Of a stretch of 64,000 bases of DNA, positions 935 through 26,699 are shown in pieces (position 1 is the stretch's first letter; each line of letters starts with the position of its first letter). Source of the DNA: Chloropicon primus (Eukaryota); contig CP060765.1 in the NCBI GenBank assembly GCA_023205875.1, positions 62,001 through 126,000 on the forward strand, given 5' to 3'. A model generated the notes under the pieces. That model was not told where the DNA came from and searched no databases. It saw only the letters and a program-made list of their open reading frames with translations. The translations under genes and the position numbers were made by a program.

Positions 935-3585
935 ATGGAAGCGGCGACAGCCGTGAGTACTGAGAGCGGTAGGCAGTACCAGCACGAAACTGGGATGCAG
1001 GGGGAGCAAGATTTCGGTCTCTTCCTTCAAGACGTAAGGCTCACACCTCGGCAGGAAGTCTTGGACAAAAGTATTGCCTTCTGACACCACCCACTCTCTC
1101 ACTTCTCTCTTCAACTTGTTCTTCACCTTTATGCTTTGCTCCTGGCCGTGGTCTTCAGGTGGCTGCACGAGTCATCCAGCATCACTACTTGCAGTGGAAG
1201 GGAAGGAGGACGGCCAAGATGGACGACTTGAGTGCGGACCTAGGCGGCGTGGGAGCGGAAGGAGGCAAGGGCCTGTCTGGTGCTGGCCAAGGCAAAGCGT
1301 TTGTCCTGAGGCGGTCAAAGTCTCTGGAGGTTTCCACGACGGAGGTTTGCTTCGACACGGAGAGTGACATGGAGAGCGAGAGGGACGAGGAAATGCGTGG
1401 CGAGGTCAGCACCTCGCTGGGGAGAAGCGCGGAGTCCCCTCGGAGACGACTCACTTCTAGCTCTGAGGCAGAGGCAGTGGTGAAGAGTCCTGACCGTGTG
1501 CCAAGGAAGAGGACGCCCAAGGAGTTGCCGCATCGCTTGAAGGCGCTTAGGGAGAGGGACAGGAATGTCTTGTCCCGGTCTCAGGCGCGCAACGAGGAGA
1601 CTGCCGGGAAGCCTGGCTTTCTCCTGGACAACACCCACGACCTCCTCAAGTCCACGGACAAGCTTCAAGACATCCTGCAGTTCCTGAAAAGAGCTGACAC
1701 GAGCATCGATGTGGAGCAGTCCAAATCAAAGCCTGTTTTCAGGACCGCTTCGCCCAATGCGGACACGACGAGTCCTCCTGACACAAGCGCAAGGGCGACG
1801 GGCACGGTGTCGCCTTCGATACTCAGAATCAGCGCGAACCTCGAGAGGGTGGGGGAGTCTCTTGTCGGCCTCAGCAGCCAGAGGCCCTCCGAAGGAAAGG
1901 CGGGCAACGGACGAGTCTTGGAGGGGCTCCCCGCAGGGAACGGGGGCGAGGACTTGGGCACCGTGGAGCAGACTGAAGCGATTCAGAACGTCTGCAGTGG
2001 CGTGCACAACAAGGTCAAGGGCCTGCACAGCAGGATACAGATGCAAAAGGAGGCGATGGCCGACCTGGAGAATCAAGTAGATGAGGGCAAGAAGAGGGAA
2101 AAGAAGCTGGAAGCGGACTTCCTGGAAAGGATAACCCAAGCCTTGGACAAGCAGAGCAAGGAGCACGAGACATCCCTGAAGCGGCACTTGAGCTTCATCG
2201 ACCGCATCCTGAAGGACAAGGACTTGCTGTCCAAAAAGTGCGAGAAGCTTGCAGTCGAGCTGAAGAGCTTGGAGGAGATGTACAATAAGAAGATCGACAG
2301 GCTCCAGACGCAGTGGGCGATTGAGCTGAAGAAGCAGAAGGAGGTGTGGCAATCCGCGGAAAAGGCGAGGAGGGAGGCTTGGCTCTCTGAGAAGACGAGG
2401 GAGATCAAGGAGCTTACCATCAAGGGCCTCGAGCCCGAGATTCAGCGCCTGATTCAAAAGAGCAAGGCAGACCTCGAGGACCTCGAATCTAAGCACGCCC
2501 TGGACATGAGGAAGAAGCTTGACGAGTGCAAGGACTACTACGACTCGTACATCCATTCCCTGCGGGACCAGTGGAGGCGCGAGAAGGACGACCTCATCGA
2601 GCATGAGCGGACGAACGCGTCAAGCAGGCTCAGGGAGCAAGGGGACAGATACGACTCGCAGATGGAGTCCCTCCGCATGAGGCTGGTGTCCGACTTTGAC
2701 TCGAAGCTGTCGTCTCTAGAGACTTCAAAGCGCGAGGAAAACTCTAGGAGCGAGAACACTTTGATGAGGCTGAGGCAAGAGCACGCCACGGAGGTCTCCA
2801 AGATGAATCAGGAGTTTGAGGAGAAAGCGAAGCAGCTCGACAGGGCCAATGACTTGGAGAAGGAAAGGATGAGGGAGAAGTTCGAGACCGAAAGGGAGGG
2901 CTGGAGGCAAATGATCGTGAAGAAGATCAAAGAAGAGTACGGGGAGAAGGAGAAGGAAATGAGGTCCAAGGTGCAACACGAAAGGAATGCCGAGCTTGAA
3001 ATGATCGTGACCAAGCTGGAACATGAAACGCAGATGACGAGGGAGAAGCTGCACGAAGAGTTTGAGATAAGGACAAAAGAGATGAAACGGGACCACGCCG
3101 AAGAAGTGAGGGAGCTCAAAGAGAGCAATCACAAGTTCTCAGAAAAGTATAGGGAGGCGGCGCAGCTCTCCCAGAGCAGCAAGAAGGAGATCACGTCCAT
3201 CCAGTCCCTGAACAAGGCTTCCGCGAGAGAGCTGGAGGTGAAAGCCGAGACAATCTCTTTCCTTGAGAAGCAGCTTGGGGCCACAAGGAAAGAGTCCTTG
3301 GAGAAAGAGAAGGAGATCAAGGCAATGTACGAGGACAAGGTCTGCATCTTGACCGAAAAAGTTTCGAGCTTTGGCCAGAGGGCCGAGAAGTCTGAAATCA
3401 AGTTGGAGGAGGCCGCGAACGAGATCAGTAGGCTGAAGGCAAAGAACAAGAGTGATATGCTGGAGGTAGAAGCGAGGGTGAAGGAAGCCATTACGAAGAG
3501 GGAGAATATCATTGCCCATCTCCAGAATCAGCTTGTCTCCCTGCAGCAGAACTTGGAGCAGACGGAGGGTCTCTTGGACCACTAG
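935..3585 (+). CDS. CEP131: Centrosomal/centriolar-satellite protein CEP131 (AZI1); exons 935-1033, 1159-3585
   Basis: IQ-like motif (VAARVIQHHY) after the splice, long coiled coil, and conserved LKRHLSFIDRILKDK and EKTREIKELTIKGLEPEIQRLI segments. GTAAGG...TTCAG intron in phase 0. Confidence 0.8.
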
Positions 3586-3662
3586 GCGACGACCGACGAG
3601 TCTATAATGTTCTTCTCCTCCTTTTGTGTAATATTCTTTTGTTACATTGGTACAAGGAAACT

Positions 3663-4465
3663 TCACGTTTTCGCGAAAAAGTTCAAGAATTCCTTGATGG
3701 ATATCTGGCCGTCTTCGTTCGTGTCCATGCTCTCAAAGACCGTGTCACACAGGTTGATGTCCATCAGACCCGTTCGATGAATTCCTTCCTTGAACTCAAA
3801 GATGTCCACGTGCCCGCTCTCGTCCAAGTCGTAGAGAGAAAAGAGCTCGATGAAGTCGCCCCTCTCCTGCTCAGTGAGCTTGCCCAGGACCCTCTTCTTA
3901 GCCTGAACCTGGCTGGGCAGTGATATCTTCAGAATCTTGTCGTATTGTGCCTCCTTTCCCCCCCTATTGGCGGCAAAATCACACAAGTCAGTAAGCAAAA
4001 GTATGGGCACGAGATGAAGAGCGTGGGCACCACCAAGTGCAGGGACGGGGATGGGGTCAGAGCGTGGCACTTACGGGTACAGTGTCTTCACGAGCTCCTT
4101 GAAAGATATCTTTCCATCTTTGTCAGAGTCAAGAAGAGAAATGTAGTCATTCAAGAACTTCTGCGCGTCCATAGACATGTGCTGCTTGAGGTTTTTACTC
4201 AACTCGGAGCGTCCAATATATCCGCTGCCGTCGAGGTCGATCTCATGGAACATCTCGTTCAGGAACTTCACGTCCGACACCGAGAAGGTCTAGAAAGGAA
4301 GCGAGAAACAAGTATTGTTTTAGAACAACAGAAAGAGAAGGCAAGAAGTAGGTTTTTTGCTCTGGGCAAACGATAGTGCTGAAGAAAACGTACCACACTG
4401 GTGAAATCATTCGCCTTGCAGGGCTTAATCCTGAAAGTCGTCTCCTTAGTCCTCTTGAGCACCAT
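3663..4465 (-). CDS. Four-EF-hand calcium-binding (calmodulin-like) protein; exons 4465-4394, 4289-4075, 3963-3663
   Basis: EF loops DLDGSGYIGRSE, DSDKDGKISFKE, DLDESGHVDIFE and DTNEDGQISIKE. Two GT-AG introns give a continuous frame. Confidence 0.85.
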
Positions 4466-21465: not shown

Positions 21466-23806
21466 TCAGGCACTCCCGTTCCCGTTGGCCTCGTGGAAGA
21501 CCCCGTTATCTGCCGGGGCGACGGCCTTGGCGGGCTTTCTCGCTTCACTTTGCATCTTTCTGCTAACCATCTGTCGCCTGTGACAGATGGCACAGAACGT
21601 GTTGAGCTTGCATTTCTTCTCAGGGGAAATGTACGAAGCAAAGTTCTTCCAGGTGTGGCACTGAGTGCACCACTTGAGGAACACCTTCCCGTCCTTGGAC
21701 TCAAGGCACAAAAGATGCCTCAGCCTGTGGTCGACCTTCTTGCGATTCAGGTTGAACCCCCGGATGGAGGCACAATTCGCGTCGATCCAAGCCTGGTAAG
21801 AGGCCTGGCCCTCCCCCTTGACGCAATCGGAGCAGAAGCCGGTGAACTTGTAGTTTTCCAGCTTCTTTTTCGCCTCCGAAGTGCTTCTGACGTTGCAGCA
21901 GGAGTCCGATTTGGTGGCCACGAATCTCCAGCTTTTCTCGCCAGTCTCCTGATCCAGGTTTGGAAACATCAGCACAGGGCCCAGGGAGTTTATGCACACC
22001 TTTTGGTTGTCGCTCACCCTCAAGTTTGGGTGGTACACCTTTCCCTGGCTCCTCTCGCGCTCGATGATTTCTGACAAGTTCCCCCTTTTCGGTATTGGAT
22101 TGTTCTCCTCAACAAAGTCAGGAATTTTGTCAAAGGGAAAGAACAGAATGTCTCCCACCCTGTTAGGGCTCTCGTAGTACTCCCTCAGTGTCGCCTTATC
22201 GACTTTCACGCTGTCCAGGGCCTCCACGAACACCTGCTCATTCGGGTACCAGAAAGAAAAGTCGGTCACGGGTATGCTGTTCAAGTACTCCAGCTGCATC
22301 GCCCTGAGCCTCTTTGCTTCCTCCGGGCTGACTTCCGAGTGCTTCCTCTTGCTCTTCTTCTTCGCACAATTGCTGCCAGCATGATGCTGCAGTGAAGAAC
22401 GCGCGGTTGTGGCAAGCTGGCCGCCCTCCCCTGTCGTAGCCGCGCCGTTTCCGACCGCCTCTCCGTTCAACTTCTGCTGCTCAGAGATTTCGGGCGTCTT
22501 CGGGGCATCGACTACTGCGGAGACCCCTCCTATGGTGACGTTCCCGGCCACGGGCAGCCCATTCACGCCCTGAGTGGCGTGGGGCTGAGCCGCGTCTTCG
22601 ATGACTTCGCGAGCCTGCTCCACGACGCTAGCGGGGACCGAAGGCTGGGTGATCCCGGCCCCAACCCCCTGCTGGATGGCATCGCTCGACATTTTGCTCT
22701 TCTTCTCGTTCCTTCTCTTCTGCAGCTGCTTTTCCCTGGACTTGACTTGCCTCTCGTAGCAGTTCCCGCAAAAGGTGTCGATGCCTGGGCTGGGATCCTC
22801 CGGATTGCTCATCATCCCGGAGCAGAACTCGTTGAGATTCTTCCACAGGTGGCACTGGGTGCACCACTTCAGGAAGACTTTCCCTTCGTCCATCTCCAAG
22901 CAAAGCATGTGCCTGAGCTTGGTCTCCCCCTTGTTCCTCTGCAAGTTGAAGCCGCGGACAGTCTTGCAGCCGTTGACCCTCCAGTTTTCCTCCGAGCCCA
23001 TTTCGGAACCAAACACGTGGTACTGGCAGAAGCCCGTGTTCTTGTAGTTTCCGAGCGTCTTCCTGTTCCTGTTCTGGGAGCAGCAGTTCCCCTGGCCGTC
23101 CTTGGCGAGCTCGGCCTCGACGAAAGAGTTCTCCCCCTTCATGGGATACAGCAAGGTTGGCCTGAGGGAGACGATGCAACGCCCTTGAAGGTCGCTTATT
23201 TTCGTCAGGACCCTCCCCTTCTCCTGGAGGGAGTGCTCCGGCTCCAACGCTGGGTGGGGTGCGTGCGCCACCTCGCCGTTGGGCATGGGGATGATGGGGT
23301 GCTTCTTCCGGATCATGCGGGAGCTCACCTCGAAGAGCGGCAGGCCGCGCTCCCTCTTGAAGCAAAGGATGTCGAACAGACGGTTCTTTCGGGACAGGTG
23401 AGTCCTCAGGACCTCCTTCACCTGCAGCAGCGGAGATAGGGCGAATAGTGAGGACGCGAGTTAGTTAGTTCAAAGAAGCGGGCGAGAGGTAGTGGACGTG
23501 ACGTGACGTGACATGACGGGACGGGACGTGATGCGACTCGCATTCTCAGGAGCAGAAGCGAGCGCAGTAATCGTCCAAGAAAGCCGAGACGTATTCGTCC
23601 AAGAAGTTCTTGCATACCTGGGCATCCTCCGTCTCGCCCTCGGCCCCGTCGTCCTCGACAAGCCTCTTCGAGGACACCGTGATGGAGACCCTGTCCACGG
23701 CCTTCCAGAACGTGTCCTCGTTCGGCTCAAAGGTCGCCGGATCCGAATCCTCGCTGCTCGCCTTCTCGCCCCCGAACCCTTGCATCTCCACCAGGGAAGA
23801 GTTCAT
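21466..23806 (-). CDS. Protein with an internal duplication of a Cys/His-rich SBP-like zinc-binding module; exons 23806-23618, 23421-21466
   Basis: CAG|GTATGC donor, CTAAC branch and CTGCAG acceptor in phase 0. Two copies of ...GFC...RGFNL.R.K...LRH.LCLE...GKVFLKWCTQCH.WKN...TFC..C..RQ. Confidence 0.8.
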
Positions 23807-25020
23807 TGCGACTGGCTGACTCTCCAGGAGAGAGACAGAGACAGATAGAGTGTGTGTGTCCCACCGAACTCCAGCAACCTTTGTGGTGGTGGTTGGTGGT
23901 CCCGCCGCGCTCGACAAGAAGTCTGTGACACGCCGATCCAAAAGCCCTTCACCTCCTCCTCTTCCCTCGATCCTTTGGTCCTCCCTCTCCCTGCTGCCAG
24001 GTCGTGACACACGAATCGAATCGAATCGAATCGATGGTTGTGACAAAACACTCCGTTGCTTCTCCTCTGTCCCAGCAACCTCGACGCCTTCGCCCCTCTC
24101 GCGTTCACCACAATCCCTCGCAAGAGTTCAGTCGATGCGATTGGATGCAATGTTTGGATCAATGACGAAACAAGGAAGGGTCCTCCTCCTCCTCCTCCTC
24201 CTTTTGCTGCTGCTGATGCCCCGTTTACCGATTACCGATGCCTTCGTCTCGTTCTCGTTCTCGTCCTAAACCAAAAAAAGGATGAAGAATTAGAAGAAGA
24301 GGAAGAAGAACAAAAACCTGTCGTCGCCTTCCGCTCTCGTCCTCGTCGCCGCTCTCGTCGTCGTCGTCGTGATGATGTTCTCCTTCTCCTCGCCCAGGAC
24401 GCGGCACCTCGTGACTCCGGTCTCTGTCGATCTCCGCAATTCGCGAGACGAACGCAACGAGGCCAACAATGAGTGTACAAACATCGAACGGAACGTCACA
24501 AGGAGAACAACTACTACGATACGTGTGTCCCATTCTACGTGTGAGGTTTAATGTGTTGTTTTGGGTGTAAACAGCCGCCAGAGAACAAAACGAGGGAATA
24601 AAAAAAGTCGGCGGATCAGAAAAGGAGGAAACCTCGTCGGCGGCCTAGAGCGGAACGCATCTCGCTCCTCCTTCAAACAAGCAAGCGAGCGAGCAATGAA
24701 GTGAGGAAGAAGCTTGATGAATGCGCACATACACACACACGCTCTCTCTCTCTCTCTCTTTTTTTTTGTTCACCTCTCTCTCTCTCTCACACACATGGGG
24801 ATGAGGAAGACGAGAAAGCGGCGTCGGGATCATAATGGGTTCCCGACGTCCAGCCACGACGACGACGACGATGATGATGAATTGAAATGAGAATGGGAAT
24901 GGAAGATCTCACCCATTGACATGACTTTCGATGACTCACAAGGTAAGGCTTGGGACATTGGCTCCTCCCTTCCTCCTTTCTCTTCTCTTTCTGTTTTGAT
25001 TGGAATGGAATGGATCTCGT

Positions 25021-25120
25021 AGCTGCGAAGTGATGATACAACCAAACAACAACCATTTCCTTACCGAAGACTCAACATGAGAGAAACACTTTTACATGCA
25101 CCACCAGCTGATCGCTAGCT
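25021..25120 (+). ncRNA. Box C/D snoRNA, predicted guide for the 18S rRNA Um equivalent to yeast Um1269 (snR55/SNORD33-like)
   Basis: Box C GTGATGA 25030-25036, box D CTGA 25108-25111, terminal stem 25011-25028/25112-25128. Guide CATGCACCACCA is complementary to conserved 18S UGGUGGUGCAUG; the D+5 rule selects the U. Confidence 0.85.
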
Positions 25121-25321
25121 ACGATCCACAACAACTTTAACAGCAACAACAACAACAAAGGGTTGCTTGCTGCTTCTGCTGTTGTTGCTGTTGTTGTCTT
25201 CGCCTCCAACCACCCTCCCTGCCTCTCTCTCTCTTGAGTTGTTTCTCTCCCAATTGATCCATTGCAATTGGACTGACGCATCGCCTCCCTTCTTTCCTTC
25301 GCCGCCCTTGCAGGTAAGGTG

Positions 25322-25560
25322 CAGTTCGAAGGGCCACTTTCGGTGGACTCCATTTTTCCACTGGGCGAAAGTCCCCGGGCTCTGAGGCAGAGAGTGCCAA
25401 CCCTAACAGGGTGAGACCCCCGTGCCGGCTCTCGCTCCCCGGAGCTTGCTGCCCGCGGGGTAGATAGCCAAATCACACAGTTATGTGGCCAGCAGGCTGG
25501 AGTCTCCTCCCAGGAGGAGACGAAGGCCTTGCCAACTCAACGGGGCTTACTCTTGGGCTG
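25322..25560 (+). ncRNA. RMRP: RNase MRP RNA
   Basis: CR-I GAAAGTCCCCGG (25367-25378) pairs with CR-V ACGGGGCTTA (25540-25549) as P4. P8 GGCA-GAGAG-TGCC has the MRP-specific GARAR loop. Also P2 GGCCAC/GTGGCC, CR-IV AGTTA, P1 CAGTTCGA/TTGGGCTG and a P19 hairpin. Confidence 0.93.
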
Positions 25561-25668
25561 ACACCCCTCTCTTGAAGTGTGCGTTTCCTCCCTTCGTTCC
25601 AGAGAGAACAAGGTAAGGCGATGCGCAGCAGAGGGGAACGGACCGGGGTCGTGTGTTTTGTATTGCGC

Positions 25669-25755
25669 GTGAAGTGATGATTAGCAATCACCCATATCAC
25701 CTTGCAGACCTGTTCTGAATCTCGTTGATTGACACTCATGCACCCCTCTGATCAC
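25669..25755 (+). ncRNA. Double-guide box C/D snoRNA: 18S Gm equivalent to yeast Gm1428 (snR56/SNORD25-like) via D', probably Gm1271 equivalent (snR40/SNORD32-like) via D
   Basis: Box C GTGATGA 25674-25680, D' CTGA 25715, D CTGA 25748, GTGA/TCAC stem. TTGCAGACCTGTT pairs with 18S AACAGGUCUGUGA; CATGCACCCCT pairs with GUGGUGCAUG with one mismatch. Confidence 0.85.
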
Positions 25756-25971
25756 AAGCAAGCAAAACACACGAACCCCTTTCCGCCTCAGAAAAAAAAG
25801 TATCCAGAGGCGAGCGACTGACTCAAACCCCCCTCCCCTCCTTTCTTCATTCAGCTTAGGCGTGTCGGTATACAAGCATATATTCCTAAAGAAAAAGAAG
25901 AAGTCAGTCGCACAATAACGGCTCACTGGCACGCTCGTTGTCATTCATTACATTACTATTGGCTATTGCCT

Positions 25972-26699
25972 CTACTCGGCGCCGTCTGTCCCTTCCACGG
26001 CGACGACGAGGTTCTTGTGCAAGATGTAGCAGTCCGGAGGGTCGATCCTCTTGTAGTAGTTCGGGATCATCTCCTTGATCGAAAAGCCGTGCTTGCCGTA
26101 AAACCTTATCGCCCCATCGTTGTTTGTCTGCACGTGCAGGTAAGCCTCTTCTATGTTCGGGTCCTCCCTGGCCACCCGCAGGGAGTGCTCCAGAAGATGT
26201 GTCCCCACGCCAAGGTCCCTGTAAGGCGCTAATACTCCCAAAGTCATGATGTACAGTTTGGCTTTCCCTTCCCCTTTGCTTTCCAGACGGCAAGCGATCG
26301 CCCCCACGAGGATGTCGTTATAATACGCTGCAGCGCACGGGAAGAGGACAAGAAGGAGACTGTCAGCCCTCCGCAGGAACTAATTCTTCCCCCGAGCCAG
26401 CCCAATAACAACAACAACATCGACCATCAACTCACCTAGCTGCGTCACGTCGCCGCACGCTATGCAGTCACTGTAGAACTTGTCCTGAAGACAATTCGCG
26501 AACATCGGATGAGTCAGTGGCCTTCCCATTCCCAAGCAGGCAGGAAGGAAAGAAAGAAAGATGAATGGGCCAGTCAAGGACCGAGGAGATCCCATGGCAC
26601 CCCTACCTTATACTTGACAGGAAATATCGCAGCATTCAGTTGCTTCATTTGCTTCAAGTTCTTGTCCCTGACGGAATCCAAAACAATGTGGATCTTCAT
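25972..26699 (-). CDS. NAA50: N-alpha-acetyltransferase 50 (NatE catalytic subunit); exons 26699-26607, 26484-26436, 26327-25972
   Basis: LNAAIFPVKY, AYYNDILVGAIACRLE, YIMTLGVLAPYR.LGVG, YLHVQTNN and NYYKRI.PPD motifs. Both introns are in phase. Confidence 0.93.

Follow-up and report, generated by a model that had tools for sequence, protein, structure and literature searches.

Ribonuclease (RNase) P RNA is intron-encoded in insects and crustaceans, where it is transcribed by RNA polymerase II (Pol II) and where, according to the available portions of two reports, its production needs splicing, debranching and trimming by Xrn2 and the exosome, with Ldbr, Xrn2 and the exosome required in Drosophila (PMC4287351, PMC6797745). 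In the red alga Cyanidioschyzon merolae, one of 23 stable intronic RNAs is the RNA of the sister enzyme, RNase MRP, for which the available text of the preprint defers the details (bioRxiv 10.1101/2025.12.01.691491), and the accessible part of a study of Candida and Debaryomyces describes non-coding, multi-intron hosts of small nucleolar RNAs (snoRNAs) that undergo recursive and nested splicing (PMC5033589). Here, we describe a locus in a 64-kb stretch of the green alga Chloropicon primus (CP060765.1; hereafter the window, within which all coordinates are positions) that carries an RNase MRP RNA between two box C/D snoRNAs. The chlorophyll methyltransferase of this organism is closest, among named relatives, to that of Chloropicon (a 79% cluster with C. 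roscoffensis). In our reading, which we consider probable, a non-coding host gene has three spliced introns, of which the middle one consists almost wholly of the MRP RNA, released via Pol II transcription, splicing at a branch adenosine in its own closing helix (P1), debranching and trimming.

The systems described so far share parts of this arrangement. C. merolae likewise has an algal MRP RNA that is stable in a spliceosomal intron, with C/D snoRNAs in other introns, but it is a red alga, and the preprint text available gives the matter one sentence, in which host, helix overlap and wider distribution are not described. In insects, a sister ribozyme has moved from a polymerase III (Pol III) gene to a Pol II intron, so that the statement to this effect in an earlier note on this DNA, made from its letters alone, is borne out by the parts of PMC4287351 and PMC6797745 at hand. 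The same parts of these reports also mark the differences: the RNA concerned is that of RNase P and not MRP, Pol III signals being present at MRP in all 26 insects examined; the hosts are protein-coding; and a 353-nucleotide (nt) RNA occupies a 701-nt intron, versus about 245 of 264 nt here. The Candida and Debaryomyces hosts resemble the present one in that each intron holds one non-coding RNA (ncRNA), exons are tiny or of zero length, splicing is recursive and snR55 belongs to the cargo; they differ in that, as far as the available text goes, they hold C/D snoRNAs only, MRP is not placed in the clusters, and branch site and product do not overlap. Among literature titles and the beginnings of abstracts, a coverage that leaves out subscription papers, neither an MRP RNA filling its intron nor a branch site within P1 was found. 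The intronic location has precedent; the surprising features are that the RNA takes up the whole intron, that P1 contains the branch motif, that green algae share the layout broadly and that a haptophyte-like variant exists. The earlier note had known of no such arrangement in green algae; the layout proved not to be peculiar to this alga, being widespread, and an intronic MRP RNA has its precedent in C. merolae.

Searching the window with the Rfam models confirmed the MRP call, with a match to the full model at 25319-25563 on the plus strand (RF00030, model positions 1-266, 103.3 bits against a gathering score of 50, E 7.8e-28) in place of the 25322-25560 originally proposed; no other Rfam family passed its gathering score anywhere in the 64 kb. 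P1 pairs 25318-25329 with 25553-25565. In the Rfam alignment, the 5' strand of P4 reads GAAAGUCCCC, loop L8 carries GAGAG, and conserved region V (CR-V) reads ACUCAACGGGGCUUACUCU. Both P4 strands (CR-I and CR-V) and a GARAR motif in L8 are therefore present, features that tell MRP from RNase P RNA, the GARAR criterion being that of PMC4287351/PMC6797745. The RNA is predicted to assemble with Pop1 and its partners and to act in pre-rRNA cleavage, as expected of an RNase MRP RNA. A 173-nt RNA contig from run X6, a seawater metatranscriptome, is identical to the window and lies wholly inside the MRP RNA.

Evidence for splicing came from RNA contigs of four of the eight listed runs (X1, X2, X3 and X6). 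Such contigs may drop rare splice variants and can neither rank the parts nor show transcript starts; the X1 contig depths, which were similar for MRP-retaining and spliced contigs, and an uncovered bin at 24510-24660 were not used as evidence. Runs X1-X3 represent RNA, because three introns of neighbouring protein genes were spliced in the same runs as the host joints. Two GT..AG joints, 24942^25578 and 25612^25855, were found in X1, X2 and X3 (three of the four runs, two studies), and a third, 24942^25314, also GT..AG, in X1 and X3 (two of the four runs, one study), which shows that the MRP-bearing intron undergoes splicing in vivo. Because of joint 24942^25578, the MRP intron spans 25314-25577 and the following exon measures 35 nt.

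More specifically, the host comprises the following parts on the plus strand. Exon 1, of which we delimit the 3' end (24913-24942), terminates in AAG, the contigs having 27-30 letters on the short side of joints from 24942. Intron 1 (24943-25313, 371 nt) begins with GTAAGG and closes with CTGAC (A at 25276), a pyrimidine tract and CAG, its removal being documented by joint 24942^25314. It runs directly into a recursive splice site with a zero-length exon, CAG/GTAAGG (25311-25319; the slash marks the splice junction), identified from its sequence and the intermediate joint, and from there into intron 2 (25314-25577, 264 nt), which is almost all MRP RNA and ends in AAG. Exon 2 (25578-25612, 35 nt) is bounded by joints on both sides, with an X3 contig whose shorter arm at joint 25612^25855 has 36 letters; intron 3 (25613-25854, 242 nt) again shows GTAAGG, CTGAC (A at 25821), a pyrimidine tract and CAG. 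Exon 3 (25855-25961, its 3' extent provisional; contigs from 25853 onward) runs convergently towards the 3' end of a GNAT acetyltransferase gene (Pfam PF00583) that is encoded on the minus strand and has its stop near 25972. Removal of intron 1 regenerates AAG/GTAAGG at the recursive site, and joint 24942^25314 is what recursive splicing at CAG/GTAAGG should yield; a 3' site that abuts a 5' site is here accompanied by an intermediate joint, seen in one study and lying on an 8-nt repeat.

The splice signals themselves are clustered. AG/GTAAGG occurs at 24943, 25314 and 25613; the octamer AGGTAAGG has four copies on both strands of the 64 kb, three of them within 700 nt here, and none of 200 order-1 resamplings produced three AGGTAAG within 700 nt. 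CTGAC, whose A falls at 25276, 25561 and 25821 and which is each time followed by a pyrimidine tract, recurs together with such a tract in two introns of the neighbouring acetyltransferase gene. The earlier note had drawn three introns running from AG/GTAAGG through CTGAC and a pyrimidine tract to CAG, separated by exons of 0 and 10 nt. Its intron starts, its motifs and its junction 25612^25855 (found in X1, X2 and X3) held, as did the zero-length exon (24942^25314 in two of the four runs), but the MRP intron ends in AAG at 25577, its CTGAC lies inside the MRP RNA and not downstream of it, and the exon of 10 nt gives way to one of 35 nt. The expected junction 24942^25603 was absent from the four runs, as was any 10-letter insert, 24942^25578 being found instead; we rejected a 3' splice site at CAG 25602 with a 10-nt exon as the main form, no such joint occurring in these runs.

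What the earlier note had overlooked is that the MRP RNA is not merely intronic but is nearly the entire intron. It takes up about 245 of the 264 nt: P1 starts 4-6 nt after the intron's 5' G, and the 3' splice site, AAG, lies 16 nt past the predicted branch A and 14 nt past the end of the MRP RNA. With so short a stretch left before the AG, a branch site of the usual kind can be located only within the MRP RNA. The only CTGAC of intron 2 (25558-25562, plus strand) falls within the 3' strand of P1. Its A25561, the predicted branch point, occupies an insert column of the Rfam alignment and is bulged in the folded intron, unpaired between neighbours with pair probabilities of 0.81-0.998, and the motif is the one shared with introns 1 and 3. 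A comparable conflict has been reported for SNORD2 and EIF4A2, in which the structure of an intronic ncRNA conceals its host's branch point; there, according to the available part of the report, the snoRNA pairs with flanking intron, whereas here the motif sits in the mature RNA's own closing helix (PMC10324135).

The introns on either side each contain a box C/D snoRNA on the plus strand, as had been proposed for 25021-25120 and 25669-25755. Both have C, D', C' and D boxes and a terminal stem, and each has a guide of at least 10 nt before D or D' that matches 18S rRNA (12 and 10 nt, respectively), although neither reaches the Rfam gathering score of SNORD33 or snR56. Guide targets were judged on 38 rDNA loci of other eukaryotes. 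The first snoRNA, of U33/snR55 type (25021-25120; C 25030, D' 25064, C' 25077, D 25108; SNORD33 32.1 bits, gathering 44), has a D guide with a 12-nt perfect match that is predicted to target the U in GGUGG-U-GGUGCAUGG of 18S rRNA, a target present in 37 of 38 eukaryotic 18S loci; its D' guide (25052-25063) had no convincing target in the 38 partial rDNA loci and is conserved in a related locus, L001. The second (25667-25757; C 25674, D' 25715, C' 25725, D 25748; SNORD33/32 24.4 bits, gathering 44; snR56 19.9 bits, gathering 54) appears to be a dual guide, its D' guide being predicted to target the G in AACA-G-GUCUG through a 10-nt match (36 of 38 18S loci) and its D guide the G in a GGUGG-G-UGCAUG context through an 8-nt match with one mismatch beyond. 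We take the D guide of the first to be that of U33 and the guides of the second to be those of U25/snR56 (D') and U32/snR40 (D), the targets presumably corresponding to yeast U1269, G1428 and G1271. Both snoRNAs are predicted to work like SNORD33/snR56-type guides, and we do not file them as members of these families. A long AAC/GTT inverted repeat (25127-25200), with several chance microRNA hits, sits within intron 1, after the snoRNA and before the branch site.

Whether the host encodes a protein was judged from its spliced sequence. An open frame of up to 144 codons is possible if the RNA is extended to 26232, a caveat to the original statement that the spliced product has no convincing open reading frame. 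For the first 70 residues, the relatives L065 and L001 gave no significant match; the remainder, the sole part matching L065, is an antisense shadow of the acetyltransferase gene, and the exon-3 part had no Pfam match. On these grounds a protein-coding host was rejected. Since the frame matches L065 in its antisense part alone, has no Pfam match and is carried by unconserved exons, the host transcript is likely non-coding.

The same layout was found in other algal sequences. In loci L001 and L065, the three ncRNAs stand in the same order, each behind its own AG/GTAAG, while their exons are not conserved, so that the synteny in relatives suggested as a check is indeed kept. By blastn, only the three ncRNAs are conserved in these relatives upstream of the acetyltransferase gene; the first snoRNA is 89% and the second 96% identical in L001/L065. 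L001 has an exon of about 40 nt in place of the zero-length exon, and we therefore regard the recursive site as local and the whole-intron design as shared. A metagenome scan with a P4/P8 motif returned at least 119 loci. Its P4 pattern does not match the MRP sequence of Ostreococcus tauri, so Mamiellales are likely missing from the set. Among the matches listed, Rfam confirmed MRP in 20/20 loci with CTGAC and in 20/20 others that were checked, and 100 distinct entries, the window included, divided into 30 with CTGAC after CR-V, 58 without and 12 incomplete. Clustering at <90% identity reduced the 30 to 25 representatives (the window and 24 metagenome sequences). Two scans of viral contigs for MRP motifs gave no match.

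In all 25 of these CTGAC representatives from the matches listed, a 5'-splice-site motif (23 GT, 2 GC) lies 6-9 nt before the GCAG of P1, the anchors of L028 and L061 having been placed by hand after misplacement by the script; the background for this motif is 1841 of 85758 flank positions (2.1%). The first AG follows the branch A by 10-38 nt in 24 of the 25. In an alignment of 24 sequences, from which L032 was omitted for its length, 96.5% of P1 cells are paired and seven of eight flanking pairs change on both sides, while the four pairs around the bulge show no changes on both sides. L050 and L060 keep CTGAC although the partner base has changed. The L031/L056 group adjoins a ribosomal protein gene 93% identical to that of Picochlorum, and we therefore take the layout to span at least Chloropicophyceae and Trebouxiophyceae.

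The cargo around the MRP RNA is partly shared as well. Among the 24 other representatives from the listed matches, of which many have a flank of 300 nt only, 8 carry one or both of the window's 18S guides beside MRP, and U59 was found near MRP in 5 of 20 loci scanned (L056, L015, L011, L029 and L012). No shared protein-coding host gene linking the locus groups was found; 136 flanking frames gave seven Pfam hits, two of four locus proteins were matched by exact look-up, and an atlas look-up for L069 and L044 returned family-level answers only. The dual-guide snoRNA, whose two 18S guides are both kept in distantly related algae, adjoins MRP upstream in L060 and downstream in L002, L011, L015 and L031. 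Tandem MRP copies were seen in L049 (three, at 2868-4334, each behind its own AG/GTAGGC), L075 (three), L099 and L037 (two each). Unusually long MRP-like RNAs occur in L032 (1061-1592, about 500 nt), L006, L018 and L059, that of L032 retaining the splice-site and CTGAC layout.

A second whole-intron design is predicted from the flanking letters of 11 of the 43 non-CTGAC clusters among the matches listed (L004, L005, L036, L045, L052, L055, L075, L082, L084, L104 and L116). There, the 5' strand of P1 is itself the 5'-splice-site motif (CAG/GTGGGG and variants) and an AG/GT follows P1 by 4-9 nt, giving predicted introns of 261-291 nt. One of these loci would be haptophyte-like: the MRP RNA of L004 precedes an endonuclease V gene that has its best named relatives among haptophytes. 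Four of the other 32 listed clusters have a T-run of at least 5 just downstream, as in Pol III genes. Twelve other MRP loci with starts set by Rfam had a loose splice-like motif in two cases (L026 and L048) and none in ten.

These data support the original proposal that the MRP RNA is intron-derived and co-expressed with 18S guides, through spliced contigs from two studies, the recursive intermediate and splice signals kept around 24 other MRP RNAs. What we observe are three joints, an intermediate with a zero-length exon, the call of MRP RNA and where the splice signals lie; polymerase, branch point, debranching and mature ends we infer by analogy with Drosophila RNase P RNA. Pol II would transcribe the host, and intron 1, with its U33-type snoRNA, would be cut to the AG at 25313, regenerating AAG/GTAAGG; a one-step cut from 24943 to 25577 would yield the same end product. 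While P1 is open, U2 would pair with CUGAC at 25558-62, and a 264-nt lariat would be released, which would need debranching, since the mature RNA contains the branch A and P1 starts only 4-6 nt after the 5' G. After debranching, P1 could close with the former branch A bulged, and trimming of the 5' end by about 5 nt and of the 3' end by about 13 nt would leave an uncapped 5'-monophosphate RNA of about 245 nt. The same nucleotides would thus have two roles in turn, initially as a splicing signal and later as a ribozyme's closing helix; because U2 pairing and P1 would use the same bases, they presumably cannot coexist, which could order or limit release. One promoter would supply the RNA of a pre-rRNA endonuclease and three 18S methylation guides.

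Several points weigh against this reading. The contigs carry no strand, end or level information, and the recursive joint sits on an 8-nt repeat in two runs of one study, so that template switching could have produced 24942^25314. The distance from branch A to AG is 16 nt in the MRP intron versus 33-37 nt in introns 1 and 3 (stable yeast introns are reported, in the text available, to have short branch-to-AG distances), and a CTTAC 12 nt upstream of CTGAC, also inside the MRP RNA, offers an alternative branch site. The intronic layout at the metagenome loci is predicted from sequence, and the 25 representatives are kin and not independent events; since they were picked for CTGAC, its invariance among them is circular, whereas the splice-site association and the retention of CTGAC in L050 and L060 are not. 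A 2007 survey, in its available part, assigns MRP RNA to Pol III throughout eukaryotes. The mapped MRP RNA of O. tauri (chromosome 15, 387693-387940, minus strand) is likewise green algal, 246 nt long and uncapped, and its sequence ends exactly in CTGAC, which speaks for our reading, but the accessible text places its gene between others and assigns it to Pol III, with a T-stretch (PMC7671301); that supposed terminator could be a pyrimidine tract.

Transcription of the host by Pol II does not by itself make splicing the source of the MRP RNA. P1 might fold first and hide the branch site, with nucleases excising the RNA from an intron-retaining transcript, as for the polycistronic snoRNAs of plants and yeast, and splicing would then be a side path or a disposal of excess precursor. 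In the folded intron the branch motif is indeed buried within a stable helix, X1-X3 include contigs with the MRP intron unspliced, one of them joined to exon 1, and such a route has been reported, in the text available, for the intronic RNase P RNA of Drosophila in reporters. We nevertheless hold this course to be improbable, because in 25 of 25 representatives the RNA has splice signals close by at either end, which is hard to explain unless splicing defines these ends, and because there is little flanking intron to hold an endonuclease signal.

An independent Pol III gene, with splicing of the surrounding host incidental to it, seems more improbable still. It would follow the reported norm of animals and plants, and we believe that the MRP gene of Drosophila is itself a Pol III gene inside a host intron; a TCCCA at 25248, about 70 nt upstream of MRP, bears a faint likeness to the plant upstream sequence element (USE) and counts against our reading to that extent. 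The remaining marks of a type 3 Pol III gene (USE with TATA; no internal T-run, with an oligo-T terminator) were not found, in keeping with an origin from an intron. The MRP RNA contains the T5 noticed earlier at 25353-25357, no T-run of at least 4 follows until 25656, about 90 nt downstream, and the DNA directly upstream is, as originally stated, a 3' splice tract, with none of CCCRTAA, ACCCAYAW and TATAWA in 24400-25330, motifs that come from other organisms and may not represent the USE of Chloropicon. According to the accessible part of a survey of telomerase-RNA promoters, some snRNA-type genes do without a USE. Among the listed representatives, 4 of 25 have a T-run of 5 inside the MRP RNA and only 4 of 25 have one following the branch A, USE-like matches occur in 2 of 25 upstream regions, and all have a 5' splice site abutting P1. 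At the 5' end of MRP, a B-box-like GTTCGA was rejected as wrongly placed and not conserved. Finally, as the call was made within the 64-kb window, this copy could be an unused duplicate of a working MRP gene elsewhere. We give that explanation very little credence, in view of the match to the full-length model, the compensatory changes in P1, the conservation of MRP while the exons diverge, and the identical MRP-only contig in the seawater metatranscriptome.

If release by splicing is correct, a large algal group likely makes the RNA of an essential ribosome-biogenesis enzyme via the spliceosome, together with 18S guides in one transcript, and an RNA that is the intron, with a closing helix that is the branch site, would offer a compact test of the order of splicing and ribonucleoprotein folding. 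Pyrimidine tracts may pass for Pol III terminators, and searches based on Pol III promoters will miss MRP genes of this kind. A more far-reaching proposal, which we put forward as speculative and on balance unlikely, is that P1 acts as a built-in switch, in which bases adjacent to the 5' splice site pair with the branch site, folding and splicing exclude each other, and the supply of MRP protein could pace release; and that whole-intron MRP is the chlorophyte rule, O. tauri having been misread, with a second form in haptophytes, and, taken together with the red algal case, could be old in Archaeplastida, with the Pol III gene of land plants derived.

Two further observations were made. L120-L157 are eukaryotic 18S rDNA contigs in bacterial or archaeal genome records and represent contamination. 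Within the window, a spliced gene on the minus strand (21466-23617 and 23616-24420) has a 664-amino-acid frame that lacks a Pfam match, contains an internally repeated Cys/His-rich unit and is 53% conserved in L001.

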